Assembly (NCBI GenBank): GCA_030667965.1 | Contig: DAOUUW010000001.1 | Span: 2,014 to 66,013, forward strand | DNA length: 64,000 nt | Origin: Deltaproteobacteria bacterium | GTDB lineage: Bacteria > Desulfobacterota > Desulfobulbia > Desulfobulbales > SURF-16 | Direction of reading: 5' to 3' | Part shown: positions 38,792-59,052 of the stretch, in pieces | Position numbering within the stretch: position 1 is the stretch's first letter | Layout of the letters: each line of letters starts with the position of its first letter | Made by a program: the position numbers and the translations under genes | Notes under the pieces: model-generated | Seen by the model: only the letters and a program-made list of their open reading frames with translations | What the model was told of the DNA's origin: nothing | Database searches by the model: none

Positions 38792-38828
38792 ACGACTAAC
38801 GGGTCTATAGCTTCCGACTGCGCCGGAC

Positions 38829-39159: not shown

Positions 39160-39882
39160 CTATAAACCTGCCGACACCGCATCAACAGGAATCATATGTT
39201 CCAACAACAGGTTAACCACTGTCCGGCGATCCTGATCCAAATCTTTACCATCTATGGTATCCGTCACTGAATACATGCCACTTCTCAGGCGTCTCAACTC
39301 AACAAGATGGGCTCCGCAACCTAAAGCCCTACCGATATCCGAGGCAAGGGTGCGAATATAGGTCCCTTTACCGCAAACAACCCTGATCTGCAACAGGTCA
39401 CCCTGCCAGGCAAGGGCCTCGATTTCCATAATTCGAATGAGTCGCGGCTCCTTTTCTACCTTTATGCCTTTTCTCGCATAATAATACAAGGGTTTTCCCT
39501 TATATTTCAAGGCCGAAAAAGCCGGAGGCTGCTGAAGCTGATCACCGGCAAACTCCTGCATGCAAGCGTCAATCCTCTCTCTGGTCACATCGACTATATC
39601 ATGCCGGGAAATGACCTTTCCAGTCAGATCCTGGCTGTCTGTTTCTATTCCCAGTTTCAGGGTGGCCGTGTACTCTTTTTCTCCCTCCATCAAGGAAGCA
39701 ATCCGGCGGGTTGCGGTACGTCCGGCACAGACAACAAGAAGGCCGGAAGCAAAGGGATCGAGCGTTCCAGCGTGCCCCACTTTTTTTATCTGTAAGACCC
39801 GTTTGATCAACCGCACCATCCCAAACGAGGAAGGTCCGACAGGCTTATCGATCAGAAAGATCGCCGGGGGAACAACTTGCAT
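39160..39882 (-). CDS. truB: tRNA pseudouridine-55 synthase TruB
   Basis: Start trimmed to MQVVPPAIFLIDKP (ATG 39882). Has the catalytic motif GHAGTLDPFASG. Confidence 0.9.
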   Translation of the reverse strand: MQVVPPAIFLIDKPVGPSSFGMVRLIKRVLQIKKVGHAGTLDPFASGLLVVCAGRTATRRIASLMEGEKEYTATLKLGIETDSQDLTGKVISRHDIVDVTRERIDACMQEFAGDQLQQPPAFSALKYKGKPLYYYARKGIKVEKEPRLIRIMEIEALAWQGDLLQIRVVCGKGTYIRTLASDIGRALGCGAHLVELRRLRSGMYSVTDTIDGKDLDQDRRTVVNLLLEHMIPVDAVSAGL

Positions 39883-40861: not shown

Positions 40862-41252
40862 TTTCACTGGAGATATCATGAAATATTTTATCCATTTTAG
40901 CGTCATATTCCCCGGACGGATCAGGATAGAAAACAAGATCCGGCGCATAACGCAACTGCATCACTTTGGCCAGAGAACTTCGCATGAAACCTTTGGCCCT
41001 CGTTAATGCCTGTCGAACTTTCCCGCAAGATTCCTCGGGGCAGCTGTAATAGATTTTAGCAATCTTTAAATCATTGCTCATTTCCACATGGGCAATGTTC
41101 ACACTATGCAGAGCAGGATCTTTTACCTTATAGAGAAGGAGCGTGGATATCTCGTTTCTAATGGAATCAGCCACCCTTGCCGGACGCCTTTTCGGTTCCG
41201 GTGCAAGTCCTTCCGGCAGCCTGAAACGGGATTTTGACTTTGTTGAAGCCAT
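40842..41252 (-). CDS. rbfA: Ribosome-binding factor A
   Basis: 136 aa with RVADSIRNEISTLL and a KH-like core, located after infB. Confidence 0.88.
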   Translation of the reverse strand: MASTKSKSRFRLPEGLAPEPKRRPARVADSIRNEISTLLLYKVKDPALHSVNIAHVEMSNDLKIAKIYYSCPEESCGKVRQALTRAKGFMRSSLAKVMQLRYAPDLVFYPDPSGEYDAKMDKIFHDISSENESGSF

Positions 41253-41273
41253 AAATGGTCAAAGGAGAACTGA

Positions 41274-43976
41274 TTACAGTTCAGCCTCGATTTCCTCCAT
41301 AATAAACCCTTCAAGGCGGTCTCCCACCTTGATATCATTATAATTTTCTATACCAATGCCGCATTCATAGCCTGCCTGCACCTCTTTTGCGTCATCCTTG
41401 AATCTCCGCAAAGACGCTATCTTGCCTGTGTTGACAACAACACCATCACGCAGCAGACGGACATGGGCATTTCTCAGCATTTTGCCATCCGTCACATAAC
41501 AACCGGCAATTGTACCAATCCTAGGCACATGAAACGTTTCCCGCACTTCGGCGTTGCCGATAATCTTTTCTTCAAACGTTGGATCAAGCAGGCCGACCAT
41601 AGCATTCCTGATATCATCAAGTGCATGATAAATTACATCATAATAACGCATATCAACATTTTCCGCCTTTGCCAAATCAGCCACTTTGACACTTGGGCGC
41701 ACATTAAAACCAATAATCAGAGCATCCGATGCCGCCGCCAGAAGAACATCCGACTCAATGATGGTACCAGTCCCTTCATGGAGAACCTTCACTTTTATTT
41801 CATCGGTACTCAGTTCCGTAATGGCCTTGCCGAATGCTTCCAGGGTACCCTGAACATCAGCGCGCAACAAGACACGTAATTCTTTTACGTCGCCCTCCTG
41901 CAATTTTTCAAAGAGATTATCAAGTGAAATCTTCGTACTGCTTGCAAGTTCGCTCTCACGACTTTTCAACCTTCTGTCAGTGCAGACTTTTTTGGCCATT
42001 TTCTCATCAGGAACAACGACAAATTCATCCCCGGCCCTGGGCACGCCGCTCAGCCCCTGCACTTCCACAGGCATGGACGGTCCTGCCTCCATAACCGTTC
42101 TGCCCTTATCGTCGGACAATGACCTAACCTTGCCGCTATAAAGACCGGCAACAAAATAATCACCTACGCGCAGGGTTCCATGCTGAACAAGCACTGTGGC
42201 CACCGGACCTCTTCCCTTATGAAGCTGAGCCTCAATAACCCATCCTTTGGCACGGCGCTTAACATCAGCCTTTAATTCAAGAATCTCCGTCTGCAGCAGG
42301 ATATTTTCAACAAGTTCATCAATGCCGGTTCCCGTTTTGGCCGAGGTCTCGCAGTAGATGGTATCACCACCCCAGTCCTCAGGAATCATTCCAAGATCGG
42401 CGAGTTCCCTCTGCACCCTGGCAGGATCGGCATTTTCCTTGTCGATCTTGTTCACCGCAACCAGAATAGGCACGCCTGCCGCCTTGGCATGATTAATTGC
42501 CTCTTTGGTCTGATCCATGACACCATCATCCGCGGCAACCACCAGCACCACAACATCCGTCACCTGGGCTCCACGTGAGCGCATTTCTGTGAACGCCGCA
42601 TGGCCCGGAGTATCAAGAAAAACAAGATCACCATGGGATGAACGAACGTAATGTGCACCTATATGTTGGGTAATGCCGCCTGCCTCTCCTGCCGCTACAT
42701 CGGTATTTCGAATCGCATCCAGGATTGAGGTTTTCCCATGGTCAACGTGACCCATAACAGTAATAACCGGAGGACGGGGAAGCTCAACTCCGCCACCTTC
42801 AGATTCATCAAGGTTAAGGATGGATTGCTCTTCAGTTACACCCTGTTCCACTTCAAAACCAAAATCGGTGGCAATGAGCGTTGCAGTATCAACATCCAGG
42901 GCCTGGTTAACAGTGGCCATGACCCCAAGGCCTATGAGTTTAGCAATAACCTCGTTGGCTTTAACACCCATCCTGTGAGACATATCACCAACGGAGATTG
43001 TCTCAAGAATCTTGATACGCTTCTTGATGGCTTTGGTTTCACTGACAACCTCAACAGCCGCATCGCGCTTTTTCTTTTTATGTCCGCCACGAAATCCGCG
43101 ACCAACTCGGACATCAGCAGCAATACGGCCACCGAGCCGGGCAAGATCTGCCGCATCAACATCAACAGCGCCTTTTTGCTTAGCGCCTTTTCTAAAACGC
43201 CCATCAGTGGGCTCATGGCTGAATTTCACAAAGCGCTTCCCTTTTTTTCCTTTTACTTTATCCCTTACGGAATCTTCTGTTTTATCAGTCTGTGTTATTG
43301 CGGGCTTTTCAGAAACAATTTTATTCTTTTTCGGTTTTTCAACCTTTTTAGGTCTGACCCGTTTTTCCTCCGTTTGAATCGGAAGTTCCGTTTGACCTAT
43401 AATTTTCGCCAACCCCTTTTTTCTTTTGGGAACGGGCGCTTCTGCATTCAGTGGCTCTTCAACAGGTTTTTCTTCAGGTTTCGCAACAATTTTTTCTTCC
43501 ACATCTACAGGGGCGATATCATCAATTTCTTCTACTTTTTTATCAGGCTCAAATATCTGCTCTGCTTTCTGAACAGGTTCTTCAGACGCAACAACAACTT
43601 CAGGCTCAGGAACAGATACTTCATCTATTAATCCTTCAGCCGTTTCGACCGTCTCTGCAGGTAATGGTGCAACTTTCCCCTCGATCTCTTCCCCAGGCTC
43701 CTCGACAGGCTCTTCGACAAGCTCTTCGACAAGCGGCTCAGACACAACTTTTTTTCGTCTTCTAATGATCGTTGTCCTGCCTTTTTGCTCTATTCTCTTT
43801 TCTTTAACCTCGACCTTAGAGAAACCAAGTTCCTGGCGGATTTTATCAGCTGTTTCCTCGTCAAGTGAAGAGTTATATGCCCGTACCTTATAACCCAATT
43901 CTATGAGTTGAGCGGTCAAGACCTTACTTTCAACTCCAGCCTCCTTGGCCAGATCGTATACCCGAATTTTTCCCAT
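41274..43976 (-). CDS. infB: Translation initiation factor IF-2
   Basis: 900 aa with a G domain ([25 protein letters not shown]) and an acidic, repetitive N-terminal region. Confidence 0.97.
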
Positions 43977-44011
43977 TATCTGCTCCTGAACAGCCCTTCT
44001 CTTGTACTTCT

Positions 44012-44296
44012 CTACTGTAATGTCTTTTCAACAAGAGACAAAATATTGCCTTGCCATGTCAAATTATTTCGACGAAATACCCTGGCAATTTTTTTCTTGT
44101 CTTTTAATATGCTTTTCATGCAGGTTGCCTTTCTGCAACTGTAAGCGCCTCTTCCAGCCATTTTCTGTGCAGTGTCTAATACTATTTCTCCGTTTGAGAC
44201 AACCAGCCTCAGCAGATTTTTTTTTGCATTTTTCTTTCCGCAACCAAGACACGTCCGCTGGGGCGCTGCCGCATCTACCTTGCACATGTTTGTCAT
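44012..44296 (-). CDS. ylxR: YlxR/DUF448 RNA-binding protein
   Basis: Has the RTCLGCGKK motif and lies between nusA and infB. Confidence 0.85.
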
Positions 44297-44319
44297 TTTT
44301 CCCAGGATGGCTCGTCTAC

Positions 44320-45651
44320 TTAAGCGGGTTCATGATCCGGCAACTCCGGGGTCTCAGGCTCATCAGGGGCTGAATCACCAGACTGCAAGGATGGATCTTC
44401 CTCCACGGGAAGCTCCTCCAGATATTGCCTGGCTGACTGCAGCAAATCCTCTACAGTCTTCACATCATCCAAGCCGGTTATTCCCTGAATATCTGCTGCA
44501 TCAGCCTCCAGTAATTCCCCGGCAGATGTTACCCCCTCTTCATACAACGCTTCCGCTATTTTTTCCGTCATGCCCTTCAAAAGCATCAGAGACTGAAAGC
44601 CCTCTTCCATCATCCTGGCATATCTCTGCTCACTCTTTACATCAATCCTCCAGCCCAACAATATTGAGGCAAGACGGACATTCTGTCCCTGCCTGCCAAT
44701 GGCAAGGGAAAGTTGATCATCAGGAACCACGACAAGCAGTTTTTTCCTATCCTCATCAACCACAACCATGGACACCTGCGCCGGCGCCAGGGCGTTGGAC
44801 ACATACTTCGCCGGATCAGGGCTCCACGGGACGATATCAATTTTTTCACCCTGCAGTTCCTGGACAACATTCTGTACCCGCGAGCCCTTCATGCCGACAC
44901 ATGCGCCAACAGGATCAACATCGCTTTCCGATGATGAGACAGCTATTTTGGCCCGTGATCCCGGTTCGCGGCAAGCGTTCATTATCGAGACTATGCCTTC
45001 TGAAATTTCAGGGACTTCCATTTCGAATAATTTCACCAGAAATTCCTTGCAGGTGCGACTCAACACAAGTTGATGGTCACGTACATCCTGGCGCACGTCT
45101 AGAAGATAAGCCCTTATCCTGTCACCCTGACGATAAGAACGCCTTGGCATCTGCTCTTTCTTGGGCAACAAGGCATCTGTACGCCCGAGATTGACAATCA
45201 TATTACCGCGCTCAAAACGCTGCACTATTCCATTGACAATTTCACCCTTACGATCCTTATACATTTCATAAATGACGTCCTTTTCGGCATCTTTCATTTT
45301 CTGTATAATGACCTGCTTGGCTGACTGGGCAGCGATACGTCCAAGATCGGACACATTTTCCATCTTCGACCCCAGCTCATCGCCGGGATCTACATCAGGA
45401 TCAAGCCTTTTCGCTTCAGCAAATGATACTTCAGTCTGCTCATCCTCAACTTTTTCAACAACCGTGCGAAATTGAAACAACTCTATTTCGCCAAATTCTT
45501 CATTAAAAGTTACTTCAATGTCCCGCCTCAGGCCATATCTTTTCTTTGCAGCAGACAGTACTGCCTCTTCAAGCGCTTCGACGAGAATCTGCCGATCAAT
45601 GCCTTTGTCCCTGCTTATTTGATCAATGATTCTTTTTAAATCTGATAACAT
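44320..45651 (-). CDS. nusA: Transcription termination/antitermination factor NusA
   Basis: 443 aa with an N-terminal domain, S1 and two KH domains, and an acidic C-terminus. Confidence 0.96.
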   Translation of the reverse strand: MLSDLKRIIDQISRDKGIDRQILVEALEEAVLSAAKKRYGLRRDIEVTFNEEFGEIELFQFRTVVEKVEDEQTEVSFAEAKRLDPDVDPGDELGSKMENVSDLGRIAAQSAKQVIIQKMKDAEKDVIYEMYKDRKGEIVNGIVQRFERGNMIVNLGRTDALLPKKEQMPRRSYRQGDRIRAYLLDVRQDVRDHQLVLSRTCKEFLVKLFEMEVPEISEGIVSIMNACREPGSRAKIAVSSSESDVDPVGACVGMKGSRVQNVVQELQGEKIDIVPWSPDPAKYVSNALAPAQVSMVVVDEDRKKLLVVVPDDQLSLAIGRQGQNVRLASILLGWRIDVKSEQRYARMMEEGFQSLMLLKGMTEKIAEALYEEGVTSAGELLEADAADIQGITGLDDVKTVEDLLQSARQYLEELPVEEDPSLQSGDSAPDEPETPELPDHEPA

Positions 45652-45732
45652 TATTTGTCTCCATAATTTCAGCCGATTCCTGTTTAAGGAGCAGTTGAAC
45701 TGGAAATATCGCCGATTAAAACATTGGCGCCG

Positions 45733-46197
45733 TTAAAATTCGATAACTAGCTTTGCTTTTTTAATTTTCTCCAATGGAAAGGCACGAGTATCGCCATCAA
45801 TTTTCATTGTAACGACATCACTATCGACCTTCTCTACAATTCCGGTCAACCTCTGCCTGCCTCCATCATCCTCTATGTCTATCCGCACCTTTTCCCCTTT
45901 GTTTCGCCTAAAATCGCTGCTTGATCGCAAGGGACGGTCCAGTCCTGGAGAAGACACCTCCAGTGTATATTTCTGTTCAATCACATCTTCAACATCAAGA
46001 AGATGATTTATTTCGCGGCTGACTCTAGTGCAATCTCCGACAGTTATACCGCCTTCCTTGAAAATAATCAGTCGAAGAACCCAGCCAATCTGCTCCTGAC
46101 GAAACTGTACTTCAACCAGCTCAAGATCATGTTCAGAAAGCACAGGCTCCGCAAGACGACTTACCGTATCTGTAATGTTATCATTGTATGAAGTCAT
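45733..46197 (-). CDS. rimP: Ribosome maturation factor RimP
   Basis: Start trimmed to MTSYNDNITD (ATG 46197). Contains LELVEVQF...LEVSSPGLDRPL. Confidence 0.9.
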   Translation of the reverse strand: MTSYNDNITDTVSRLAEPVLSEHDLELVEVQFRQEQIGWVLRLIIFKEGGITVGDCTRVSREINHLLDVEDVIEQKYTLEVSSPGLDRPLRSSSDFRRNKGEKVRIDIEDDGGRQRLTGIVEKVDSDVVTMKIDGDTRAFPLEKIKKAKLVIEF

Positions 46198-46433
46198 ATT
46201 TGCAAATGAACCAGACACCTTGACAGCATATTTTAAACAAAAAAAGCGGGCAAAGCCCACTTTTTATTAGATGACGAATATCACTCGCTATCACGTCAGA
46301 AGAAATAACTGTCTTTCTTCTGTTACACTAGTAACAAAAAAACTTAAACCCAAAAACAAACAGTCGCGGGCGTACAAACATTACGCAGCAAAAATTGTAT
46401 CTAAAACCCGCAGATGAGCCTATCACTTATCCT

Positions 46434-46912: not shown

Positions 46913-48328
46913 TTACAGTATAGAACGAACAGCAGTGCTTGCTATTTCAAGTATTTGTTTAGGAACAACTCCCATGTATATAATAACAGCTATGAGCGAA
47001 ATACTGACAACTTGGGTCATCATATCTACCTTTACATTCGGACGATCTTCAGGGTCACTGCAGAAGGCAACCCGTACAACAGACAGATAATAATAGATAG
47101 CAATGGCCGTATTCAAGGCAGCGAGGATGACCAAGGCCAGATGCCCGTCATTCAAAGCTGCAGTCAGCAGCATGAATTTTCCCATAAATCCGACAAAAGG
47201 AGGTATACCGGCAAGTGCCATCATACCCACAAGAAGGGTCAGGGCCAAAAGCGGTGCTCTTTTATACAACCCGCTCAAGTCCTCTACCTTAACATTTTCT
47301 CCATTTTCGGAAACCTTGCATATAACAAGAAAGCAGGCAAGATTCATGAACAGATAGCCGAGAATATAATAAATTGATGTGGCAAATCCTGTTTCTTTCA
47401 GGGTCAGCAGACCCAAGAGAACGAATCCGGCATGCGCAATGCCGGAAAAGCCGAGCATACGTTTGATATCGGTCTGTACAAGGGCGGATAAATTTCCGTA
47501 AAACATGGAACATACAGCTAGTACCATGAGCAGGTTCACAACAGATGCACCGGCATCAGGTGCAACAAGTGTTGTTATACGAATCAGGATTGCGACTGCT
47601 CCAAGCTTTGGCACTGTTGCAATAAATGACGTAGTTGCATTTGATGCACCCTGATAGACATCAGGAACCCAGAAATGAAAAGGGAACACACCAAGCTTGT
47701 AAAATAAGCCGCACATAAATAAGGCAATTGCCAGCATGGCTGTCGGGCTTGCTGCAAGCACATGAAGTTTCGGTACCAGTTCAATGAAATATGTTGTGCC
47801 TGTCAATCCATAAATAAAACTGATTCCGTACAGCATAGTGCCGGTTGCAATGACACCGAAGACGATATACTTAATTGCCGCCTCCATCTGAATGCGAAGG
47901 CCGGTATGATCATCCCGCATGGGAACCATCAGATATAATGAATAAGACGAAAGCTCAAGGGCTACAAAGAGAGTTAAAATCTCAACACTGCTGACCATCA
48001 TGACCAGGCCGAGGGTACTTAACAGCATAAAGAGATAGTACTCGGGACGCATCCTGTCCGTCACACCTTTTAATTCACTGCTGAATATGAGTACCGCAAT
48101 GAGACCCAGCGAGATACTTAGCTTGAATATCTGGGAAAACAAATCAACCCGATAAGCGTCAAAAAACATATTTCCCTTGGATTGCAGGGTGACAAGGCAC
48201 AAGACGGTTGAGGCAACGGCCAGTGCAAGTGTTATGTTTTTCGCCAACTGCCCATTTCCCCGGCCGAGACAGACTCCGAAGAGAACCAGACTTCCTATTA
48301 GCAGTAATAACTCTGGTGCAAACAACAT
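46913..48328 (-). CDS. nuoN: NADH-quinone oxidoreductase subunit N
   Basis: 471 aa antiporter-like polytopic protein, last gene of the nuo operon. Confidence 0.88.
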   Translation of the reverse strand: MLFAPELLLLIGSLVLFGVCLGRGNGQLAKNITLALAVASTVLCLVTLQSKGNMFFDAYRVDLFSQIFKLSISLGLIAVLIFSSELKGVTDRMRPEYYLFMLLSTLGLVMMVSSVEILTLFVALELSSYSLYLMVPMRDDHTGLRIQMEAAIKYIVFGVIATGTMLYGISFIYGLTGTTYFIELVPKLHVLAASPTAMLAIALFMCGLFYKLGVFPFHFWVPDVYQGASNATTSFIATVPKLGAVAILIRITTLVAPDAGASVVNLLMVLAVCSMFYGNLSALVQTDIKRMLGFSGIAHAGFVLLGLLTLKETGFATSIYYILGYLFMNLACFLVICKVSENGENVKVEDLSGLYKRAPLLALTLLVGMMALAGIPPFVGFMGKFMLLTAALNDGHLALVILAALNTAIAIYYYLSVVRVAFCSDPEDRPNVKVDMMTQVVSISLIAVIIYMGVVPKQILEIASTAVRSIL

Positions 48329-48427: not shown

Positions 48428-49939
48428 TCAGGGCAACATCACCATGGCCATTTGTGCCGACTTAGCAACATCTACCTGCTGAAGCAGATAATCCACACTG
48501 GTGTGCAAAACGCTCAAAAAGGGCTCCGGTGCAAGTCCTATCCAGAACACAAAGACAAGTAACGGCGCCAATGTTGCAATTTCACGCACATTCAAATCTG
48601 CAAGATCAGGCCTGCCTGGCCCTTTGAAGAGAACATACTGCAGCAGGCGCATCATATATGCAGCGGCAAGGATAGCGCCCGGAATCGCAGCGCCGCCTAT
48701 AATTTTATTTTCGCTGAATGCGCTAGCCAGGATCAAAAACTCACCAACAAAACTGTTCGTTGCCGGGAAAGCAAGTGATGAAAGGGAAAATACAGTCAGA
48801 AACGAAACAAAAATCGGTACATTCTGGGCAATTCCGGAATGGTCTGCCAGCTCGCGGCTATGTGTTCTTTCATACATCATACCAACACAGAGAAACAGCG
48901 CACCGGTTGTTACACCATGATTTATCATCTGCAGAATGGCGCCTTCCAGTCCCTGCTTATTAAGGAAGAAAATACCCAGTGTCACAAAGCCCATATGTCC
49001 AACACTGGAGTAGGCAATAAGCTTTTTCATATCCGACTGGGCAAGGGCGGTAAAGCCACCATAGAGAATTGCCGCAATGGACAGCCAGAGAATGTAGGGC
49101 CCAAGGCTTAAGGTTGCAAGTGGTGTAATGGGCAGACAAAAACGCAGAAACCCATAGGTACCCATTTTCAAAAGAATACTGGCAAGGATTACACTGCCGG
49201 CAGTGGGCGCCTCAACATGAGCGGCCGGTAACCAGGTATGGAAGGGAAACATGGGAACCTTGATGGCAAAAGCAAGAAAGAAGGCAAGGAATACCCAGAT
49301 CTGCATCGTGTTGGAATAATCCTGACCCATCATCATTGGAATGCTGAAGGTTCCTGTATGTAGATAAAGCGCAATGATTGCCACAAGCAGCATGACAGAT
49401 CCGGAAAGGGTATAAAGAAAAAACTTAATAGAAGCATAAACCTTTCTCGGACCACCCCAGACAGCAATGAGAAGATACATGGGAATAAGCATTGCTTCCC
49501 ACAGGACATAGAAAAGGACAAAGTCAAGCGCCATAAAAACACCGACCATTGCCGTTTCCATGATCAGCAGGCAGATCATGAACTCTTTTACACGTTTTTG
49601 AATATATGTCCACGAACCCATGACACAAAGAGGCATAATGAAGGTCGTAAGTAGAACCAGCAGAAGGCTGATACCATCAATTCCCATAGTGTAGTATATG
49701 TTCAGGCTGGGAATCCAGCTGACATGCTCACCAAACTGATATTTGGCTGTTGTAGAGTCAAAACCCGTATAAAGAGAAAATGAAATAACAGCAGTGACTG
49801 TGGTAATAATCATCGTCCAAATGCGCTGGACATTTTCACCCGGGAGAAAGAGCAAAACAAATGCGCCTGCAAGGGGAAGAAATACCAGAGTGCTCAAAAG
49901 GGGAAACCCTTCATTCATTATCAGAAAATCCATTCCCAC
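48428..49939 (-). CDS. nuoM: NADH-quinone oxidoreductase subunit M
   Basis: 503 aa antiporter-like subunit (FPLLSTLVFLPL..., WLPAAHVEAPTAGSVILA). The start may be at a downstream Met. Confidence 0.88.
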   Translation of the reverse strand: MGMDFLIMNEGFPLLSTLVFLPLAGAFVLLFLPGENVQRIWTMIITTVTAVISFSLYTGFDSTTAKYQFGEHVSWIPSLNIYYTMGIDGISLLLVLLTTFIMPLCVMGSWTYIQKRVKEFMICLLIMETAMVGVFMALDFVLFYVLWEAMLIPMYLLIAVWGGPRKVYASIKFFLYTLSGSVMLLVAIIALYLHTGTFSIPMMMGQDYSNTMQIWVFLAFFLAFAIKVPMFPFHTWLPAAHVEAPTAGSVILASILLKMGTYGFLRFCLPITPLATLSLGPYILWLSIAAILYGGFTALAQSDMKKLIAYSSVGHMGFVTLGIFFLNKQGLEGAILQMINHGVTTGALFLCVGMMYERTHSRELADHSGIAQNVPIFVSFLTVFSLSSLAFPATNSFVGEFLILASAFSENKIIGGAAIPGAILAAAYMMRLLQYVLFKGPGRPDLADLNVREIATLAPLLVFVFWIGLAPEPFLSVLHTSVDYLLQQVDVAKSAQMAMVMLP

Positions 49940-49976: not shown

Positions 49977-51755
49977 TTAATAAAATACGATGACGAGTAC
50001 AAGGGCTGCAGCTATGGAAGCCGCATAAAATATACTGTATTGTATATTACCGGATTGAGCCTTGCGCATCACTCCACCAAGGGAGCGAACCGACCTGGCT
50101 GTCCCGTCTACCACCCCGTCAATGCCATGCCAGTCAAACCAGGACCAGAAGCGAGAAACAGCCATCAGGGAGAAAAGGCCGATGACACGATATATTTCTC
50201 CGACGCAGGTATCGATAAACTGAATTATCCTGCTGTCAACCCACATGAAGCAACGTCCGGCCATACGGTAGAACCAGTCAAGATCCAGACTGATTGTTGC
50301 AGTAGGTTTGATAAAGGGACGCAGGACATAGAAGGCGATACCGGCCGTACCAATGATCTGCAATGTTTCTGACAGATGATAAGCTGTATATGGGTGATAA
50401 TCCACAGGAAAGGGCAGCATACCGTAGAGATAGGCAGTATAACAGCCGATAAAAACACACATAACCGATGCTATTACCATGGCAGCCTGCATATTCCATG
50501 GGGGATCTTCAGCTTTTTCCCATACCTCAGGGCTGCAGTTGTTTTTACCAAACCATATGTAATAAGGAACCTTTATACCGGCAAGCAGAAATGTTCCACC
50601 GGAGGCGAGGATAAGAGCAAATGAGGCCCAGATGTGATGTGACTCCATGCCCCCGGCAATGATCATTGATTTACTGACAAAACCGCTGAACAGCGGGAAA
50701 CCTGCGATGGAAAGGCCGCCAATCATGGTAAAGATAAATGTCTTCGGCATTTTCTTGTACAGGCCGCCAAGTTCATTCAATTTACAGGTCCCTGTCATAT
50801 ACAGAACAGAACCGGTACCCATGAACAGCAGTCCGTTATAAAGTATATGGGCAAAGGCATGGGCGCAGGCACCATTAATTGCAAGACTGGAACCTATACC
50901 TACGCCGACAACCATGTATCCGACCTGGCTCACAGTATCCCAGGCGAATATCCTGCGCCCATCGTTTTCGAGGATACCGTAAACAACACCGTACAGTGCC
51001 ATGATCGCCCCCAAGGGGATCAAAATGTCCATACCGGCAAATCCGCGGGCCAGAACATAAATGGCTGTTTTGGTAGTAAAGGCGCACATGAAGACGGCAC
51101 CGGCCACACTTGCCTCGGCATACGCATCCGGCAGCCATGAATGAAATGGCGGCACGGCGGCATTAACCATAAATCCAATGAGTATAAGGTACGTGGCAAG
51201 ATTCGGCGCATCTACGCCCAGCGGAACAAAGGAAAGATCTCCGCCGGTGTTGTAGTAACGCAGGGTAAATCCCGCCAGCAGGAAGAGACCGCCTATGGTG
51301 TGTATCAACACATAACGGTAACCGGTTGCAATTGACTGAGGCCCGCCCCGTTGCCAGACCAGAAAGACGGAGGCAAATGCCATCAATTCCCAGAAAAGGA
51401 AAAGGACAATGAAATCTCCACACAGGATTGTGCCGATTGAACCCGCTACATAAAACCAGGCGGCTATATGATGTCCGTCGTCTTCAACATTAAGGGAAAA
51501 GAGTGTGCCTATGATGCACATAAAGGACATAATATAGGCAAATATCAGGCTCAGACGGTCAACCCGGCCGAATATGAGCTGCCAGTCAAGAAACTGGACA
51601 ATTCCATAGATTCCTTTATCAAGGCTGAGTACACACAAAAATGTCAAAATTGGAACAATGAGGAGAAAAGGCTTACGAATCGGCCCTCTCATCAAGGGCA
51701 GAAGAAGTCCGCCGATAATCAGAATGAGTGCAGGATGCAGCCAGAAATTACTCAT
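49977..51755 (-). CDS. nuoL: NADH-quinone oxidoreductase subunit L (antiporter-like core plus C-terminal lateral-helix/anchor segment)
   Basis: The C-terminus GIDGVVDGTARSVRSLGGVMRKAQSGNIQYSIFYAASIAAALVLVIVF matches the NuoL/Nqo12 lateral-helix-to-last-TM pattern. Start taken at MSNFWLHPAL (ATG 51755); the ORF extends to 51770. Confidence 0.8.
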   Translation of the reverse strand: MSNFWLHPALILIIGGLLLPLMRGPIRKPFLLIVPILTFLCVLSLDKGIYGIVQFLDWQLIFGRVDRLSLIFAYIMSFMCIIGTLFSLNVEDDGHHIAAWFYVAGSIGTILCGDFIVLFLFWELMAFASVFLVWQRGGPQSIATGYRYVLIHTIGGLFLLAGFTLRYYNTGGDLSFVPLGVDAPNLATYLILIGFMVNAAVPPFHSWLPDAYAEASVAGAVFMCAFTTKTAIYVLARGFAGMDILIPLGAIMALYGVVYGILENDGRRIFAWDTVSQVGYMVVGVGIGSSLAINGACAHAFAHILYNGLLFMGTGSVLYMTGTCKLNELGGLYKKMPKTFIFTMIGGLSIAGFPLFSGFVSKSMIIAGGMESHHIWASFALILASGGTFLLAGIKVPYYIWFGKNNCSPEVWEKAEDPPWNMQAAMVIASVMCVFIGCYTAYLYGMLPFPVDYHPYTAYHLSETLQIIGTAGIAFYVLRPFIKPTATISLDLDWFYRMAGRCFMWVDSRIIQFIDTCVGEIYRVIGLFSLMAVSRFWSWFDWHGIDGVVDGTARSVRSLGGVMRKAQSGNIQYSIFYAASIAAALVLVIVFY

Positions 51756-51996
51756 CGTAATAATCCTCACGTGTCATGATTCCAAGGCTACCAAGAAATC
51801 TGGAAAAAAGAATAAGCAGCGCACACCCGATCAAGCCGAACAGACTCCAGAAGAATGGGAATTTTTCCATTTCAGTATGAGCATGACTTGTGTCAACCAT
51901 AAATGCACCCCAGATTGCCAGCGCACCTACCATTGCCAACCAGAGAAAGATAACCAACACTTTACGTTTGCGGAAGAATTCAATCAAACCTATCAT
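51748..51996 (-). CDS. Small two-TM membrane protein embedded in the nuo operon
   Basis: 82 aa. Its ATG overlaps the stop of the upstream gene (ATGA) and its stop overlaps the nuoL start region. It has two hydrophobic helices. I recognise no family. Confidence 0.6.
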   Translation of the reverse strand: MIGLIEFFRKRKVLVIFLWLAMVGALAIWGAFMVDTSHAHTEMEKFPFFWSLFGLIGCALLILFSRFLGSLGIMTREDYYDE

Positions 51997-53492
51997 CCTA
52001 TCACCGCCTTAACAAGATTCATGAAAAAATTTGGATAGATACCAATAATTACCGAAATAAAGCAACATGTACACAGCGGAATAACCATGCTTAACGGTGC
52101 TTCCTTGATGCCTTCATATGGTTCACCCTCGGGTCGCTTGCCGAAGAATGCCTTATAGGTAACCGGAGCAAAATAAGCGACATTAAGCAACGTACTTGCC
52201 AGCAACACGAGAATAATCCCAAAAGATCCAGACTCAATAGTTCCCACAAGGAGCTCCCATTTAGTCACAAATCCTGCAACCGGCGGAGCGCCGATCATGC
52301 TCAGTGAAGCAATGGCAAACGCACCGAAGGTAAATGGCATTGTTTTCGCAAGTCCACTCATTTCTGAAATATTCTTCTTACGGGTTGCAACATATATTGC
52401 ACCGGCACAGAAGAAGAGGGTAATTTTGGAAAATGCGTGGTTGGAAATATGGATCAGGCCGCCGGCTATACCATGGGGAGTCAACAGGCAGACGCCTAAC
52501 ATAATGTAGGAAAGCTGGCTGACTGTAGAATAGGCAAGTCGGGCCTTCAGATTATCCTTGGTCAAGGCAATGACGGAGGCCATGACAATGGTAAATCCGA
52601 CAAAATATGCGGTCGGTATTCCAAGGTTCAGGGCGCTCATCGTATCTGTACCGAAGCCGTAAAGCATCATACGCGTGGTACTGAAAACACCCACCTTAAC
52701 AACGGCAACTGCATGCAGCAGCGCACTGACCGGTGTTGGTGCAACCATGGCACCGGGCAGCCAGTGATGAACGGGCATGAGGCCGTTTTTAGCGAATCCG
52801 AAAAGGCAGAAGATAAAGAGCATGGTCACGATGGCCCCATTCGCGTCCGCCGCGAACATACCATCCTGAATATTATACGGAAAATCGAGGGTGCCTGTCA
52901 TGACGTATATGATAGCCAAAGCCGGCAGCAGAAGTCCTTTAGCCGTGGTGGTCAGATATACAATGTATTTTTTGGCTCCCTCGTAACCCTCTTCATCCTG
53001 GTGATGGGCAACAAGCGGGTAGGTACAGACACTGACTATCTCATAAAAGAGATACATGGTAAAGAGGTTATCAGAAAAAGCCACGCCGATTGCACCAAAG
53101 ATTGCAATGGCAAAACAGGTATTAAATCGAGTCTGGGCATGTTCATGCAGGCCCCTCATATACCCCATCGAATAAAAGGCCGCTATTACCCAGAGACTTG
53201 AAGCAACAAGAGCAAATATCATTGAAAAGGCATCGGCACGCAAGGTTACCGTTATACCCGGCAGGATCTTAAAGAGCTGATAGTAGAAAATTTTACCATC
53301 CAGCACCGGTGAAACCATTGTCAGCACAGTGGAGCAAAGTATCACAGCTGAAATAACTGAAATACTCTCTCGCAGATTGGGCTTTTTGCCCGTCATGGAG
53401 ACGCAGATTGCGCCAATAAGCGGCACAACCAAAGCCCAAACTATCTTAGTACTGGTTACTATATCGCTGTTCACAGCGTTTACAATTTCCAT
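51993..53492 (-). CDS. Additional antiporter-like subunit (NuoM/MrpD-like), no lateral helix
   Basis: 499 aa. Has FRADAFSMIFALV, LFYEIVSVCTYPLV and WLPGAMVAPTPVSALLHAVAVVKVG, typical of the proton-conducting membrane transporter family. It starts 16 nt after nuoK. Confidence 0.8.
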   Translation of the reverse strand: MEIVNAVNSDIVTSTKIVWALVVPLIGAICVSMTGKKPNLRESISVISAVILCSTVLTMVSPVLDGKIFYYQLFKILPGITVTLRADAFSMIFALVASSLWVIAAFYSMGYMRGLHEHAQTRFNTCFAIAIFGAIGVAFSDNLFTMYLFYEIVSVCTYPLVAHHQDEEGYEGAKKYIVYLTTTAKGLLLPALAIIYVMTGTLDFPYNIQDGMFAADANGAIVTMLFIFCLFGFAKNGLMPVHHWLPGAMVAPTPVSALLHAVAVVKVGVFSTTRMMLYGFGTDTMSALNLGIPTAYFVGFTIVMASVIALTKDNLKARLAYSTVSQLSYIMLGVCLLTPHGIAGGLIHISNHAFSKITLFFCAGAIYVATRKKNISEMSGLAKTMPFTFGAFAIASLSMIGAPPVAGFVTKWELLVGTIESGSFGIILVLLASTLLNVAYFAPVTYKAFFGKRPEGEPYEGIKEAPLSMVIPLCTCCFISVIIGIYPNFFMNLVKAVIG

Positions 53493-53508: not shown

Positions 53509-53829
53509 CTATCCGTTAAGTTCTACTAAGTCTTCAGTTTCGATTGACTTGTAATTTCGATATACTGCAATAACAATACTCATGGCTATGGCAGCTTCAG
53601 CTGCAGCAATTGCCATTATAAAAAGAGTAATAATCTGGCCTGTGGTGGGATCAGGCGCCAGAAAGTGGCTGAATGCCATAAAATTGATAGAGGCTCCGCA
53701 AAGAACTAATTCTGCGGCAATAAGCATACCAATCAAACTAGGCCGCCGAACAAGACCAAAAACGCCGAATCCGAAAAGTATTGCACCAATTACAAGGTAC
53801 GTGTTGAGCTGAGAGCTGAGCATTAACAT
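53509..53829 (-). CDS. nuoK: NADH-quinone oxidoreductase subunit K
   Basis: 106 aa, three TM helices, at the position after nuoJ (start overlaps the nuoJ stop). Confidence 0.88.
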   Translation of the reverse strand: MLMLSSQLNTYLVIGAILFGFGVFGLVRRPSLIGMLIAAELVLCGASINFMAFSHFLAPDPTTGQIITLFIMAIAAAEAAIAMSIVIAVYRNYKSIETEDLVELNG

Positions 53830-54359
53830 TATTCTTCATCCCTCCCTTGCCTGGCCAGAACAAGTGATCCGATTATGGCAACCAGCAGTACTATTGAAAC
53901 AAGTTCAAAAACCATGCTGTACTGGGTCAGCAGATTGACCCCAATAGTCTTTACCGATCCATCATTAATTTTAGTCGCCGCCGCCATCCACTCTCCATGC
54001 ACCGCAGCGTATCCAAGCGCATAGGCCATGGCGCCACCACAGAGAGCAGCCAGGCCTCCGCTTAATCCAGTGATCTTTCTTGCCACTTTTGCCTCATTTG
54101 GTTCAGCCAGCATGATGGCAAAGGCAAGTGTTACACAGACCGCGCCAACATAGATCAACAACTGCATCATGGCGACAAAGGGACTGTTCAGGAAATAATA
54201 CAGACCGGCAACACCAACAAAACAAATCGCCAGCCCTGTAACACTTCTGATCAGCCTCTTGCTGCAGGTAGCAACTACGGCACCGAACATTGTAACGGCA
54301 ATCAGGATCAGGAAAATTAACCCGGCCAACCCTTCCGGTGAAAACAATGACGGATTCAT
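53829..54359 (-). CDS. nuoJ: NADH-quinone oxidoreductase subunit J
   Basis: 176 aa membrane protein between nuoI and nuoK. Confidence 0.85.
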   Translation of the reverse strand: MNPSLFSPEGLAGLIFLILIAVTMFGAVVATCSKRLIRSVTGLAICFVGVAGLYYFLNSPFVAMMQLLIYVGAVCVTLAFAIMLAEPNEAKVARKITGLSGGLAALCGGAMAYALGYAAVHGEWMAAATKINDGSVKTIGVNLLTQYSMVFELVSIVLLVAIIGSLVLARQGRDEE

Positions 54360-54958
54360 CAGCTTTTTCCCTCTGCTTTTTCGCCGCCTTCACCCTCTTT
54401 CTCTGTTGCGGCTTTGGCGGCTGCTTCTTTCTTTTCAGCAGCGGCTTTGGCAGCTGCCTCTATCTTTTCCTGCTCTTTCTTTAAGAGTGCAGGATCAACT
54501 TTCGGCTCCGGAACACCTTCAGGATGGAGTTTCTGCAGAAGATCAAAAACGAAATCTTCTTTCCTTGTACTGGCCAGATTGTATTCATTTGAAAAGTCAA
54601 TAGCAGCCGGCTTACAGTTTTCAACACACTGACCACAGAGACTGCAGGTGGTAAAATCAAGGATATAAGCGGTCAGTACCTTGCCTTTTACCCCCGGCAC
54701 CTTTTTGGACTTCACTGTAATACAATTTGAAGGACATCCCTTTTGACACATTCCGCATGATATACATGTATGGGTGCCTGTCTCTGAATCCATGAGCAGC
54801 TCAATATGCCCCCGGTAGCGGGGTGCCATCTTAACGGATTCATGGGGATACTGGAGGGTGATTGGCCGGGTCAAAAATTCCTTATTAGTAATCTTCAAGC
54901 CGATAGCCAAACTCTTTATGCCGTTTAAGAGATAACTGAAGTAACCAGACATAATCAA
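54359..54958 (-). CDS. nuoI: NADH-quinone oxidoreductase subunit I with an Ala/Lys/Glu-rich C-terminal tail
   Basis: Has two 4Fe-4S motifs (CISCGMCQKGCP, CSLCGQCVENCK). The roughly 45-aa tail reads EQEKIEAAAKAAAEKKEAAAKAATEKEGEGGEKAEGKS. Confidence 0.9.
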   Translation of the reverse strand: MIMSGYFSYLLNGIKSLAIGLKITNKEFLTRPITLQYPHESVKMAPRYRGHIELLMDSETGTHTCISCGMCQKGCPSNCITVKSKKVPGVKGKVLTAYILDFTTCSLCGQCVENCKPAAIDFSNEYNLASTRKEDFVFDLLQKLHPEGVPEPKVDPALLKKEQEKIEAAAKAAAEKKEAAAKAATEKEGEGGEKAEGKS

Positions 54959-55938
54959 AAGACCTTTATAAATAAGGCGGTAACTAATAAGTTAACCAGC
55001 GAGAACGGAATGAGATACTTCCAGGATAGATTCAACAGGCCCCATAATGTGGTTCGTGGATAGGTCCAACGTATCCAGACAATGGTCCAGATAAGAAAAT
55101 ACATTTTTAAAAGAAACCAGTGAGGACCGGGAAAAAGACCGAAGGGACACTGCCATCCGCCTAAAAAGAGGATTGTCGTCAGACTGGCACCGATCATCAT
55201 GTTGCCATATTCCGCCATCATAAAGAGGCCGAAACCCATACCACCGTATTCTGTAATATAACCGGCAACAAGCTCACTTTCCGCCTCACCGAGATCAAAA
55301 GGAGCGCGATTTATCTCGGCCATGGAACAGACAAAAAAGACCAGAAACGAAATCGGCATTAAAATTGATTTATCAAGCGCGAAGACATTCCAGTTCCAAA
55401 ACATGCCGCTCTGGGATCTGATAATCTCATTCAGGTTCATTGTGCCGGTGATCATGACGATGGTGATCGCCGTTATCAGCATGGGAATTTCGAAGGCAAC
55501 GCTTTGAGAAACAGCCCTGGTACCGGCAATGAGTGAATATTTATTGCCCGATGCCCAGCCGCCCAGGAGAATTGACAATCCTGCGGCTGAGGCAACTGCA
55601 AAAATCATAATCAGACCATAATCAAATTCGCGGGGTACGAGATTTTCTCCCCAGGGAATGGTGACAAATAAAATTACGGTGGCAACCATAGCCAGCACGG
55701 GAGCTGACATGTAGAGCAGCCTGTCGGCATTGTCCGGTACAACCAGCTGTTTTGACATGAGCTTCAAACCGTCTGCCAGTGGTTGCAGAAGCCCGTAAGG
55801 CCCAACATCTTTCGGACCAATTCGACGCTGGATATGCCCTGCCCCTTTCCTTTCAACCCAGCCGAGATAGGCAAGATTCAGACCGAGAAAAGCCGCAATC
55901 CCTACAAAATAACTAAGTATTCGTATCAGTTCATCCAT
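54955..55938 (-). CDS. nuoH: NADH-quinone oxidoreductase subunit H
   Basis: 327 aa polytopic protein with GWVERKGAGHIQRRIGP and AEINRAPFDLGEAESELVAGY. Confidence 0.93.
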   Translation of the reverse strand: MDELIRILSYFVGIAAFLGLNLAYLGWVERKGAGHIQRRIGPKDVGPYGLLQPLADGLKLMSKQLVVPDNADRLLYMSAPVLAMVATVILFVTIPWGENLVPREFDYGLIMIFAVASAAGLSILLGGWASGNKYSLIAGTRAVSQSVAFEIPMLITAITIVMITGTMNLNEIIRSQSGMFWNWNVFALDKSILMPISFLVFFVCSMAEINRAPFDLGEAESELVAGYITEYGGMGFGLFMMAEYGNMMIGASLTTILFLGGWQCPFGLFPGPHWFLLKMYFLIWTIVWIRWTYPRTTLWGLLNLSWKYLIPFSLVNLLVTALFIKVF

Positions 55939-55950: not shown

Positions 55951-57069
55951 TTACCGATCCATCTCAGGTATGACAAGATCAAGGCTTCCCATAAAGGCCA
56001 GGGCGTCTGACAGCAGCATGCCGCGGCTTGCCTCCTCAAACAGACTGAGATTGGAATAGGTCGGCGACCTCAGCCTCATTCGATAGGATGTATTTGTTGC
56101 ATCACTGACTGTCCGCATACTGAATGTTCCACGAGCAGCTTCCACGGCAAAATGATAATCACCCTTAGGCGGCTTGAGTATCTTGGGCGCTTTTTCAGCT
56201 TTCACCGGACCATCCGGCATCTTATCCAGAGCCTGTTCAATGATGCGCATTGACTGTTCCATCTCATCCATTCGTACCATATAGCGTGCCATGGAATCAC
56301 ATTCATGATAAACGGGAACATCAAAATCCAACTCAGGATACACACTGTACGGCTCATTCTTGCGAATATCAAAATTAACACCGGATCCACGCAGTACCGG
56401 TCCAGTTGCCCCGTACTTACGGCACATATCAGCTGATATGTGGCCGATATCAACAAGTCGTTCCATGAGAATGACATTTTTTGTTACCAGATCGTGGTAC
56501 ATGGGTATCTGGGGCCGTAATCTTTTGATAAAGGCCCTGGTACCTGTGATGAAATCGTCATCAACATCATTATACACGCCACCGAAACGAAAATAGCAGT
56601 AGGTAAGCCGGGAACCGGTGACAGATTCAAGCAAATCGAGAATCTGCTCACGTTCATCAAAGGCATACATGAGCGGTGTGAAACCGCCAAGGTCGAGGAT
56701 AAAGGCCCCGAACCAGAGCAAATGGCTCTGGAGGCGGTTCAGCTCAACCGTAATGACGCGAATGTATTCCGCCCTCTCGGGAACCTCAATGCCCATGGCC
56801 CGCTCCAACAAACCGGCGTACCCATGGTTATAGGCAATGGCGGAAAGATAATCGAGACGGCCAAGGTTGGGCCAGAACTGATTCCATGTCCGGTTTTCGC
56901 CCATCTTTTCATGCATGCGATGGATATAGCCGAGCACAGGTTCAGCCTTGACAATATACTCGCCGTCCATGATTACCTTAACACGGAGTACACCATGGGT
57001 GGCTGGATGCTGTGGACCTATGTTAAGCTCAAAGGTCTCCTGCAACTGGCTTTGGGCTAGGAGTGTCAT
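55951..57069 (-). CDS. nuoD: NADH-quinone oxidoreductase subunit D
   Basis: 372 aa with NIGPQHPATHGVLR and a C-terminal DLVIPEMDR. Confidence 0.93.
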   Translation of the reverse strand: MTLLAQSQLQETFELNIGPQHPATHGVLRVKVIMDGEYIVKAEPVLGYIHRMHEKMGENRTWNQFWPNLGRLDYLSAIAYNHGYAGLLERAMGIEVPERAEYIRVITVELNRLQSHLLWFGAFILDLGGFTPLMYAFDEREQILDLLESVTGSRLTYCYFRFGGVYNDVDDDFITGTRAFIKRLRPQIPMYHDLVTKNVILMERLVDIGHISADMCRKYGATGPVLRGSGVNFDIRKNEPYSVYPELDFDVPVYHECDSMARYMVRMDEMEQSMRIIEQALDKMPDGPVKAEKAPKILKPPKGDYHFAVEAARGTFSMRTVSDATNTSYRMRLRSPTYSNLSLFEEASRGMLLSDALAFMGSLDLVIPEMDR

Positions 57070-57614
57070 AGTTTAAAATCCTTACGTAATGGATAATAAT
57101 CACAATCATCGGGCAGCAGAAATCGCTCGAGTTGCGGATGACCGACGAAGTTTATACCAAACAGTTCCCAGGTCTCACGCTCATGCCAGTTGGCCCCACC
57201 AAAAACCTCGGAAATCGTGGGAACGTCGGGTTTCTCCCGATCCACCCTGCACCTCACCACCACACGGAACAATTCTCCGCCGGTAAATGAGTAGTCATAG
57301 ACAATTTCAAACTGGCCATCCTTGAGCCAGTCGACGCCGGTCACCATTTCCATGGTCATCCCTTCGCTGTCAAGAATTTCTGCTGACCTGACAACCTGAT
57401 CAGGATTAACCTGGACATCAAGATGAAATCCACGTTTGGCATAGTCAGTTTCCAGCAGACCGTTTTCCCGAGGCTTTTCCTCTTCTTTTTTCTTAGCCTT
57501 GGGATCGACCTCGCCTTCTTCAGCAGCCTGTACTTCTTCTACCACTTCCTTTTGGGGAGGAAGTCCTTCAGAAGCCAACATTTCCAGTTCTCTTTTTATT
57601 TTTGCTCGATCCAT
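57066..57614 (-). CDS. nuoC: NADH-quinone oxidoreductase subunit C with a charged N-terminal extension
   Basis: 182 aa with a C-terminal ANWHERETWELFGINFVGHP. The first roughly 50 aa are Glu/Lys-rich. Confidence 0.88.
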   Translation of the reverse strand: MDRAKIKRELEMLASEGLPPQKEVVEEVQAAEEGEVDPKAKKKEEEKPRENGLLETDYAKRGFHLDVQVNPDQVVRSAEILDSEGMTMEMVTGVDWLKDGQFEIVYDYSFTGGELFRVVVRCRVDREKPDVPTISEVFGGANWHERETWELFGINFVGHPQLERFLLPDDCDYYPLRKDFKL

Positions 57615-57681: not shown

Positions 57682-58236
57682 TTACCCTTTTACTGCTGTT
57701 TCAGGTTTCACCCGCGGCCATCGCCGAGTACCTGTAATTTTTTCCTCAAGCTCAAGTATTCCCTCTATCAGAGCCTCCGGTCGCGGGGGGCAACCGGGGA
57801 CATAGACATCAACGGGCAAAAAGCTATCAACACCTTCAATAACATTATATTGCCCTTTAAATTTGAACGGACCACCTGAAATAGCACAATTTCCCATGGC
57901 TATTACCCACTTGGGTTCAGTCATCTGGTCGTAGAGAATTTTCACAGGCTCCAGCATTTTTTTATTGACAGTGCCGGCGACGATCATCAAATCCGCCTGG
58001 CGCGGTGATGGCCGAAAAACTTCAGCACCGAAACGGGACAAATCAAATCGGGCGGCCCCTGCTGACATCATCTCGATGGCACAACAGGCCAAGCCAAAGG
58101 TCATGGGCCAGAGAGAATTTGCCCTGGCCAGCGCACGTAACTGATCAAGCATATGAAACTGTACAATTGATGAGGGGACAGAAGTCTCTATCCCTGATAT
58201 ACTTTCGGTTCCCACTTGAACACTCCCTTTTTCCAT
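57682..58236 (-). CDS. nuoB: NADH-quinone oxidoreductase subunit B
   Basis: Has [16 protein letters not shown] and [11 protein letters not shown]. The ATG at 58236 would overlap nuoA by 49 nt, so the start is uncertain. Confidence 0.9.
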
Positions 58237-58586
58237 GCATAAACAACCGCCAGTGAAAGAATGCCGACAAATAAGACAATCTCAATAAATGGCCGGAGAC
58301 CTTGAACATCGTTATATGCCATTGCAACTGGAAACAAAAACAAGACATCCACGTCAAAGGCGAGAAACATCAAGGCGTATAAATAATAAACAATTCCATA
58401 TCGAATCCAGGCCGGCCCAATTGTGTACATGCCGCACTCAATGGGTATGCCTGTTTTGTTTATGATATTGCGATTTCTGCGGGGAGCAAAAAAATAAACA
58501 ATGAGGAGGGGGCCGAAACCAAAGCCGAGACCACCAAGAGTGAAGGCGGCGATGTAGAGAAGGTCGGTAATAGCTTGCTGTTCCAC
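58188..58586 (-). CDS. nuoA: NADH-quinone oxidoreductase subunit A
   Basis: Start moved to GTG 58586, preceded by GGAG with a 7-nt spacer. 132 aa, three TM helices, PIECGM motif. Confidence 0.85.
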
Positions 58587-59052
58587 GATTAAACTCCTTT
58601 CTCCGTCCGGCAAAGTATGTAGCCGGGCGCTAAAGCTCACATCAGCCTGCTGACGTCATTTTTATTTGTGGATATAAATTTCACATAACCAACTCTTTCG
58701 AGCTATGCGCGGTACATTTTTTTTACGCACTGTTGCCGTTATTATCCCATCCAAAACTCTATGTCAAGAATAAAATGAATGAGTATTCACAAAAATACTA
58801 AGCCGGTATTCATTCTTCCAGGCTACAAAGGGATCAGCATATCCTCTTGATATAACAGGAGAATTAACACTGCAACAGCTGCTCTTTTTTTGTGTTTACG
58901 CACACAACCTGTTTCATTTAAAAAAACAGGATAAATCCGTAGAGATACGGAGATAGGAAAAACCGACACAACAAACTCAACAAGGGATGGTGCAACGGGC
59001 AGGGGCAGGGAGATTAACGTAATGATATTACGAGGATTACCAGGAACAACAG

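Follow-up and report, generated by a model that had tools for sequence, protein, structure and literature searches.

A probable Mrp-derived three-gene module in the place of NuoL in a complex I operon of a deltaproteobacterium

Introduction

How is the membrane arm of complex I built when its operon encodes four antiporter-like subunits, and what holds the fourth of them in place? The question is raised by a 64,000-nucleotide stretch of DNA from a Deltaproteobacteria bacterium (assembly GCA_030667965.1, contig DAOUUW010000001.1, positions 2,014 to 66,013), called here the window, in which three tightly packed genes lie between nuoK and nuoM. The encoded proteins are referred to as X (499 amino acids, aa), s (82 aa), and L' (592 aa from the preferred start codon).

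A first-pass annotation of this DNA had described a fourth antiporter-like subunit and a small membrane protein inserted between nuoK and nuoL. The follow-up leads to a different picture: with a probability of roughly two in three, the operon encodes a membrane arm of the type known as green complex I, in which a module derived from Mrp antiporters, X-s-L', would replace NuoL and form, together with NuoM and NuoN, a set of four antiporter-like units. Such a four-pump architecture has already been published, and the window is a further instance of it. What is added here is the apparent Mrp origin of the module and its breadth, the unnamed protein s, and a lateral helix of three-subunit length in what would be an arm of four subunits. 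Complex I variants with an extra pump bear on the number of protons moved per electron pair and on the use of ferredoxin by anaerobes. X, s, and L' are in no solved structure, and the structure of a green-type complex would show how a fourth pump is attached.

Identity of X and L'

On the minus strand, nuoABCDHIJK (58640 down to 53509) is followed by X, s, L', nuoM, and nuoN in one compact, Desulfobulbaceae-like operon, and the three packed open reading frames (ORFs) are found in the ORF list where the first-pass annotation had placed them. Searches of the 64-kb window with tblastn detected no antiporter-like gene beyond X, L', nuoM, and nuoN, which agrees with the four such subunits counted earlier; likewise, nuoE, nuoF, and nuoG were not found in the window, nor were the Mrp small subunits (MrpB/C/E/F/G). 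Is the product a complex I at all? The NuoB translation contains four cysteines, in CCxxE, GNC, and GCPP, which we take to be the ligands of cluster N2, and NuoD contains GPQHPATHG and GRLDY, presumably the His/Tyr motifs of the quinone site; both assignments follow Thermus Nqo4/Nqo6. NiFe cysteine motifs are absent from NuoD, and the complex appears to be of the quinone-reducing complex I type and not a group 4 hydrogenase.

Both large proteins of the trio match PF00361 (at 1.6e-57 for X and 1.1e-45 for L'), and both score below the curated thresholds of the NuoL, NuoM, and NuoN models. X obtains 212.5 bits against the 407.5 of TIGR01974 and 221.7 against the 556 of NF005141, both NuoL models, and 185.7 against the 263.8 of the NuoM model TIGR01972. 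For L' the two NuoL scores are lower still (150.6 and 152.8 bits). The models whose cut-offs are passed, NF006236 by X and NF009310 by L', both carry the NCBIfam name "antiporter subunit D". The best matches of X and L' among solved structures are MbhH and MbsH', with E-values from 1e-37 to 1e-46. A canonical NuoL is therefore absent from the operon, with X-s-L' standing in its place, and the idea of an insertion next to nuoL has to be given up.

The phylogeny proposed in the first-pass annotation points the same way. A neighbor-joining (NJ) tree was built from 106 antiporter-like sequences with Poisson distances and 100 bootstraps, and it included E. coli NuoL, NuoM, and NuoN, canonical MrpA and MrpD, and X, L', M, and N of many loci. 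The clades of X, L', M, N, and the first Mrp D subunit are each supported by 100/100 replicates, and that of NuoL/MrpA by 99/100. Because X forms a clade of its own, it is neither a fragment of NuoL nor a duplicate of NuoM, and L' is not an ordinary NuoL. A split nuoL, the possibility for which the tree had been proposed, is rejected since X is a full-length subunit with all 14 helices in that separate clade; a NuoM paralogue is rejected since X lies outside the NuoM clade and scores below the TIGR01972 cut-off.

X ends after its 14-helix core and has no lateral helix, as had been noticed in the first reading. Its channel residues are a Glu in transmembrane helix (TM) 5, a Lys in TM7, a His and a Lys in TM8, the motif HxxxHxxxK in TM11, and a Lys in TM12; among the subunits compared, the TM8 His occurs only in NuoL, MrpA, and X. 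Judged by these residues, the core of X is like that of MrpA and NuoL, minus the C-terminal extension.

The NuoL-style C-terminus (TM15, lateral helix, TM16) is found in L', not in X. In the AlphaFold model of L' (predicted local distance difference test, pLDDT, 80), TM15 covers residues 458-482, the lateral helix 492-538 and 543-564, about 70 residues in all, and TM16 572-591; MrpA and NuoL chains are the top Foldseek matches of this model. The lateral helix and terminal helix announced for a 597-aa protein are thus present in the model, whereas the length itself needs correction. The ATG at 51755 is more likely to be the start of L' than the GTG at 51770 because it shares 8 nt with the end of s and is preceded by a GAGGA at a distance of 9 nt, and because 592 aa is the length given in the database to this very protein and to its homologues.

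Channel residues are conserved in L' as they are in X. The TM5 Glu, the TM8 Lys, both TM11 His, and the TM12 Lys are invariant, and the TM7 Lys is replaced by Asn in every sequence examined (27/27 and 48/48 in two alignments). A second replacement is seen in this lineage: residue 307 of L' (592-aa numbering; window 50835-50837), at the position of E. coli NuoL K342, is Asn in the window and in 10 other sequences of the alignment, its closest relatives included (11/48), and Lys in the remaining 37/48.

Comparison with known systems

In green complex I, two MrpD-like subunits replace NuoL (PMC9040806, PMC7415380, citing Degli Esposti & Martinez Romero 2016). Yu et al. 2022 (PMC9040806) recognize two known four-pump forms, including that of Nitrospira, termed 2M, in which a NuoM is added and the helix carries some 26 inserted aa. 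The rhizobial version of the green complex can be seen on S. meliloti pSymA, where nuoJ and nuoK are followed by an MrpD-family protein of 487 aa, a hypothetical protein of 84 aa, a Na+/H+ antiporter subunit D of 586 aa, and nuoM, N, A, C, D, E, and F. As in the window, two MrpD-like genes lie between nuoK and nuoM, and the pSymA X and L' fall into the same 100/100 clades as those described above; L' is 48% identical (tblastn), and the 84-aa homologue of s is 36-40% identical. In the plasmid collection, s occurs in 97 and L' in 99 rhizobial records. There are also differences: the rhizobial order is J-K-X-s-L'-M-N-A-(B)-C-D-E-F instead of A-B-C-D-H-I-J-K-X-s-L'-M-N, nuoE and nuoF are part of the rhizobial operon while the window lacks nuoEFG, and the host is an alphaproteobacterium rather than an anaerobic member of the Thermodesulfobacteriota. 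On sequence grounds, the window would encode a green-type membrane arm in canonical gene order and without nuoEFG.

The green layout also disposes of the variant that the first-pass annotation had brought to mind, namely one with a duplicated NuoM. The Nitrospira-type 2M complex I, reportedly described by Chadwick et al. 2018, is said to have a second NuoM and a NuoL whose lateral helix is lengthened by some 26 inserted aa. It resembles the window in possessing a fourth antiporter-like subunit, for which an extra proton per cycle has been proposed in the 2M case. However, the additional subunit of the window is outside the NuoM clade, and the lateral helix of L' is not lengthened.

Two other systems deserve comparison. 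Complex_I_3 of Ca. Manganitrophus (PMC9040806) has two green-type MrpD-like subunits in the place of NuoL, but it has five pumps, with two NuoM, and an insertion of 26 aa in the MrpD2 helix, neither of which is found in the window. MBS, the sulfane-sulfur reductase of Pyrococcus furiosus (MbsH/MbsH', PDB 6u8y), provides the best solved-structure sequence match to L', MbsH' (4.7e-37), which has TM15, a lateral helix, and TM16 and stands beside a second antiporter-like subunit. Identity is about 24%, the redox module is another one, MBS keeps the Mrp sodium module, and no counterpart of s was detected in it.

Distribution and origin of the module

How widespread is the trio, and where does it come from? 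A motif scan of species genomes matched at least 389 genomes, from which 80 loci were kept, with an essentially invariant gene order. About 75 of 83 loci read A-B-C-D-H-I-J-K-X-s-L'-M-N, as does locus L173, and in 71 of 76 nuo loci the stop of X and the start of s overlap as ATGA. In nuo context the trio occurs in Thermodesulfobacteriota, Verrucomicrobiota, Latescibacterota, Binatia, Acidobacteriota, and Betaproteobacteria, the hosts including Desulfobulbaceae, Desulfurivibrionaceae, Desulfovibrio desulfuricans, Fundidesulfovibrio, Desulfopila, and one betaproteobacterium. A broad alignment of s was too diverse for scanning loci, and two other s alignments were used. The second scan, seeded with a subgroup of shorter s proteins (about 70 aa), gave 80 metagenome loci, and in every one long enough to judge X lies upstream and L' downstream of s. 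The co-occurrence survey suggested in the first reading can thus be answered: s accompanies X and L' across some 80 nuo loci, in Mrp operons, and on rhizobial plasmids, though not in an Mrp operon of Haloarcula marina (below).

The Mrp operons are the key to the origin of the module. Of the 80 metagenome loci, 38 show the context mnhE-G-B-B-C-D-X-s-L', and in Desulfurivibrio an Mrp operon encodes MnhE, MnhG, an MbhE/MnhB-like protein, MnhC, and a 516-aa MrpD-like protein, followed by X, s, and L'. These irregular operons, mnhE-(F)-G-B-B-C-D-X-s-L', resemble the 'group 3' type (PMC5703873). They share with the window the trio, its order, the lateral helix of L', and the clades; they differ in having the MrpE/G/B/C subunits of the sodium path and no redox module, in encoding three antiporter-like subunits instead of four, and in an s that is usually about 70 aa long and lacks the HAHT loop. 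Since the trio occurs in Mrp operons in the same order, and the nuo-context genes nest in the same clades as the Mrp-context ones (NJ), X-s-L' would be an Mrp-derived module that replaced NuoL, from a widespread type of Mrp with three D-like subunits.

Within this picture, the Mrp trio of Desulfurivibrio (L057:4223-12100; also L056, L068, and L069) nests among nuo-context sequences and not among the other Mrp-context ones, which suggests an exchange of the module between Mrp and Nuo within Desulfobulbales. Locus L086 (8472-12254) is a 14-subunit nuo operon with nuoEFG in which an X of 509 aa and an s of 82 aa precede a 650-aa NuoL of the canonical clade; the lateral-helix region of the latter extends about 28 residues beyond that of E. 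coli, and its VVDG.VNG motif is duplicated. To judge from this sequence, X-s can also be combined with a lengthened true NuoL. A plasmid-borne Mrp operon of Haloarcula marina (L169:3718-8605) has D, X, and L', and a search with a hidden Markov model found no s in this locus. The haloarchaeal X reaches 550 aa because some 55 aa of acidic loop, without an s motif, have been inserted ahead of its last helix, and the protein is not a fusion of X and s. In two other green-type operons, L001:12241-15399 (on a contig shared with L044) and L071, nuoM and nuoN are apparently fused into a gene for 1052-1092 aa.

The small protein s

The 82-aa gene with its ATGA overlap had been singled out in the first reading as a two-TM protein, and both the gene and the overlap of its start with the stop of X are real. 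The model of s (pLDDT 83) comprises a short N-terminal helix, which is amphipathic, TM segments at 12-33 and 49-70, and, over REDYYD, a further short helix at the C-terminus. A loop with SHAHT..E lies between TM1 and TM2, and the C-terminal tail reads MTREDYYD. By the positive-inside rule, both ends would be cytoplasmic and the SHAHT..E loop periplasmic. The conserved signature is P.FW..FG...EDYYD, with P47, F49, G54, and the E-D-Y-Y tail universal.

There are 44 clusters of close homologues; at 50% identity the family has 653 representatives, and at 90% identity it numbers at least 6,565 clusters. The worry that the ORF might not be conserved outside this genome can be put aside. The best 150 of the 653 representatives are all small stand-alone proteins, and no natural X-s fusion is among them. 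No match to s was obtained in Pfam, NCBIfam, or PDB. A relic of the NuoL/MrpA C-terminus was also considered and rejected, as hhalign gave s against the L' profile a probability of 0.2%. No mention of s was found in the searchable literature, a weak negative because the original 2016/2018 papers lie outside that search. It follows that s is a very large family without a name or a family model.

Databases treat the family unevenly. JGI names some homologues 'TRAP-type C4-dicarboxylate transport system permease small subunit' or 'DMT-like permease', which look spurious, and in the incomplete gene table of PLSDB many rhizobial plasmids have no gene entry where s matches.

Lateral helix and order of the subunits

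In what order are the four units arranged, and does the helix of L' reach them all? The spacing between TM15 and TM16 rises with the number of subunits spanned: three canonical MrpA, which span two subunits, have 40-49 residues, E. coli NuoL has 80 for three subunits, and the NuoL downstream of X-s in L086 has 108 for four. For L' of the Mrp operons with three D-like subunits the median is 86 residues (three subunits), and for L' of nuo operons the value is 89 in 65 of 72. With about 90 residues, the protein of the window is not lengthened, just as the first reading had it.

Helix lengths and the charge pattern together point to K/J-N-M-X-L' as the most likely order, in which L' forms the tip and its helix extends backward across X and M, reaching only to about the M/N boundary. 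In canonical complex I, the TM12 Glu of NuoM faces a Glu/Lys pair. The NuoM of the window has this Glu, and the Glu/Lys pair (TM5/TM7) is present in X and not in L'. In the proposed order, the NuoM Glu would face the pair of X, and the TM12 Lys of X would face the lone TM5 Glu of L'.

Proposed function

The product of the operon would be a complex I of the 11-subunit type, without the NADH module, with ferredoxin as the probable electron donor and menaquinone as the probable acceptor; the literature proposes ferredoxin as the donor for those nuo operons of sulfate reducers that lack nuoEFG. X would act as an antiporter-like subunit with the full MrpA/NuoL-like set of channel residues, while L' would be a second one that also supplies the lateral helix and the TM16 anchor. 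A fourth pump would bring the yield to about 5 H+ per 2 e-, which would suit the large potential gap from ferredoxin to menaquinone, and in the reverse direction more proton-motive force could be spent per electron pair.

And what would be the task of s? Its tight coupling to X, its fixed position, and its near 1:1 co-occurrence with L' make it most likely that s is a stoichiometric partner of X with a structural role, located at the X/L' junction or close by. This small two-helix subunit would be translationally coupled to X, and its invariant acidic-aromatic tail would be found at the cytoplasmic surface, along which the lateral helix passes. That s specifically makes up for missing helix length, the bracing role considered in the first-pass annotation, is unlikely, because it also occurs in Mrp operons and beside a lengthened NuoL: its settings comprise a helix that is sufficient (Mrp), one that is lengthened (L086), and one that is short for its arm (green type). 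A broader proposal is tentative, and we hold it to be somewhat less probable than its opposite: s may be an unrecognised stoichiometric subunit that marks a very large class of X-containing bacterial assemblies, both green-type complex I and three-D Mrp, docked on X near the lateral helix, in arms that are braced for only three of four pumps. If this is true, the green-type arm is held together unlike any solved complex I.

Several points weigh against the picture of a four-pump green-type arm. The helix of L' seems to have three-subunit length in a four-subunit arm, some 20-30 residues too short, so that either N would be unbraced or the order would not be K/J-N-M-X-L'. The absence of the TM7 Lys from L', and in this lineage of the K342 equivalent, may mean abnormal pumping. 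The deep branching among the antiporter-like clades is weak (support of at most 57/100, NJ), and it is synteny alone that places all four subunits in one complex. Lastly, s is not strictly required for the pairing of X and L', being absent in the haloarchaeal X-L' operon.

Alternative explanations

Some of these points can be turned into other readings of the same genes. Perhaps L' is mainly a donor of the lateral helix, pumping poorly or not at all, and X does the work of NuoL, for about 4 H+ per 2 e-. Such a division of labour would account for the Asn that replaces the TM7 Lys throughout, for the Asn at the K342 position in this lineage, and for the fact that the full NuoL/MrpA-like residue set sits in X; we consider it unlikely, however, because the remaining charged and His residues, from the TM5 Glu to the TM12 Lys, would hardly be invariant in a purely structural protein, and because TM7 varies in other working subunits too, MbsH having Glu there according to a review. 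The helix length could also be explained by an order N-M-L'-X, in which L' braces M and N as in canonical complex I, and X sits beyond the tip, unbraced and tethered to L' by s, a modified version of the bracing considered in the first-pass annotation. The 89-residue helix region would then have its canonical three-subunit length, the tether would match a gene for s that always lies between X and L', and a core of NuoL/MrpA type, terminal in known complexes, would be terminal again. Yet by the same logic the Mrp arrangement D-X-s-L' should need only a two-subunit helix of about 45 residues, as in MrpA, whereas the median of L' there is 86; in L086, X-s goes with a NuoL helix longer by 28 residues, which places X under the helix; and L' lacks the TM7 Lys that would have to face the TM12 Glu of NuoM. 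This order is accordingly judged improbable.

The other two alternatives concern what belongs to the complex. Could s be an assembly factor or a membrane chaperone for X, and not a stoichiometric subunit? It is small, it has no detectable similarity to known subunits, and haloarchaeal X-L' operons can dispense with it. However, a gene coupled to X through ATGA and overlapping that of L' suggests synthesis in equal amounts, the same position is kept in distant phyla and in two kinds of complex, and on rhizobial plasmids s keeps pace with L' almost record by record; the chaperone role is therefore rather doubtful. A separate antiporter-type unit, or an alternative part of the arm, that only shares the operon would leave no four-pump arm at all. 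This reading draws on the same reliance on synteny noted above, and on the trio also working in Mrp contexts, but it leaves the complex of the window without a lateral helix once L' is taken away, there being no canonical NuoL, and the trio without Mrp small subunits; the position between nuoK and nuoM is, moreover, conserved across phyla. It is by far the least probable of the four. The replacement of NuoL by X-s-L' in a four-pump arm remains the preferred reading.

Gene calls and neighbouring genes

The features of the operon are collected in Table 1.

Table 1. Coordinates in the window and supporting evidence for the genes of the operon
Feature	Coordinates	Strand	Evidence and remarks
nuoA	58188..58640	-	PF00507 1.4e-25 and ORF list; start codon uncertain, homologues about 133-140 aa
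nuoB	57682..58236	-	translation; PF01058 in colinear homologues
nuoC	57066..57614	-	PF00329 7.4e-33, residues 67-182
nuoD	55951..57069	-	translation; PF00346 in colinear homologues
nuoH	54955..55938	-	translation; PF00146 in colinear homologues
nuoI (2x[4Fe-4S])	54359..54958	-	Fer4 family matches
nuoJ	53829..54359	-	PF00499 2.7e-31
nuoK	53509..53829	-	PF00420 1.8e-20
X, 499 aa	51993..53492	-	NF006236 810.3 bits vs 663 cut-off; 100/100 clade; key residues
s, 82 aa	51748..51996	-	homologue clusters; ATGA overlap with X stop
L', 592 aa (597 aa from GTG at 51770)	49977..51755	-	NF009310 718.6 vs 564; AlphaFold; Foldseek
nuoM	48428..49939	-	TIGR01972 589.7 bits; TM12 Glu as in canonical NuoM
nuoN	46913..48328	-	TIGR01770 363.4 bits

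The surroundings of the operon are those of an ordinary genome. Directly downstream of nuoN (window 36412-46260) lies a housekeeping cluster, rimP-nusA-infB-(DHH family)-truB-pnp, and a Mur ligase gene is found upstream of nuoA. Two of the Nuo proteins have unusual ends: NuoI carries a low-complexity C-terminal tail of about 40 aa, rich in Lys, Glu, and Ala (window 54359-54480), and NuoC a charged N-terminal extension of about 60 aa (window 57435-57614). Both proteins differ widely in length from one colinear locus to another.

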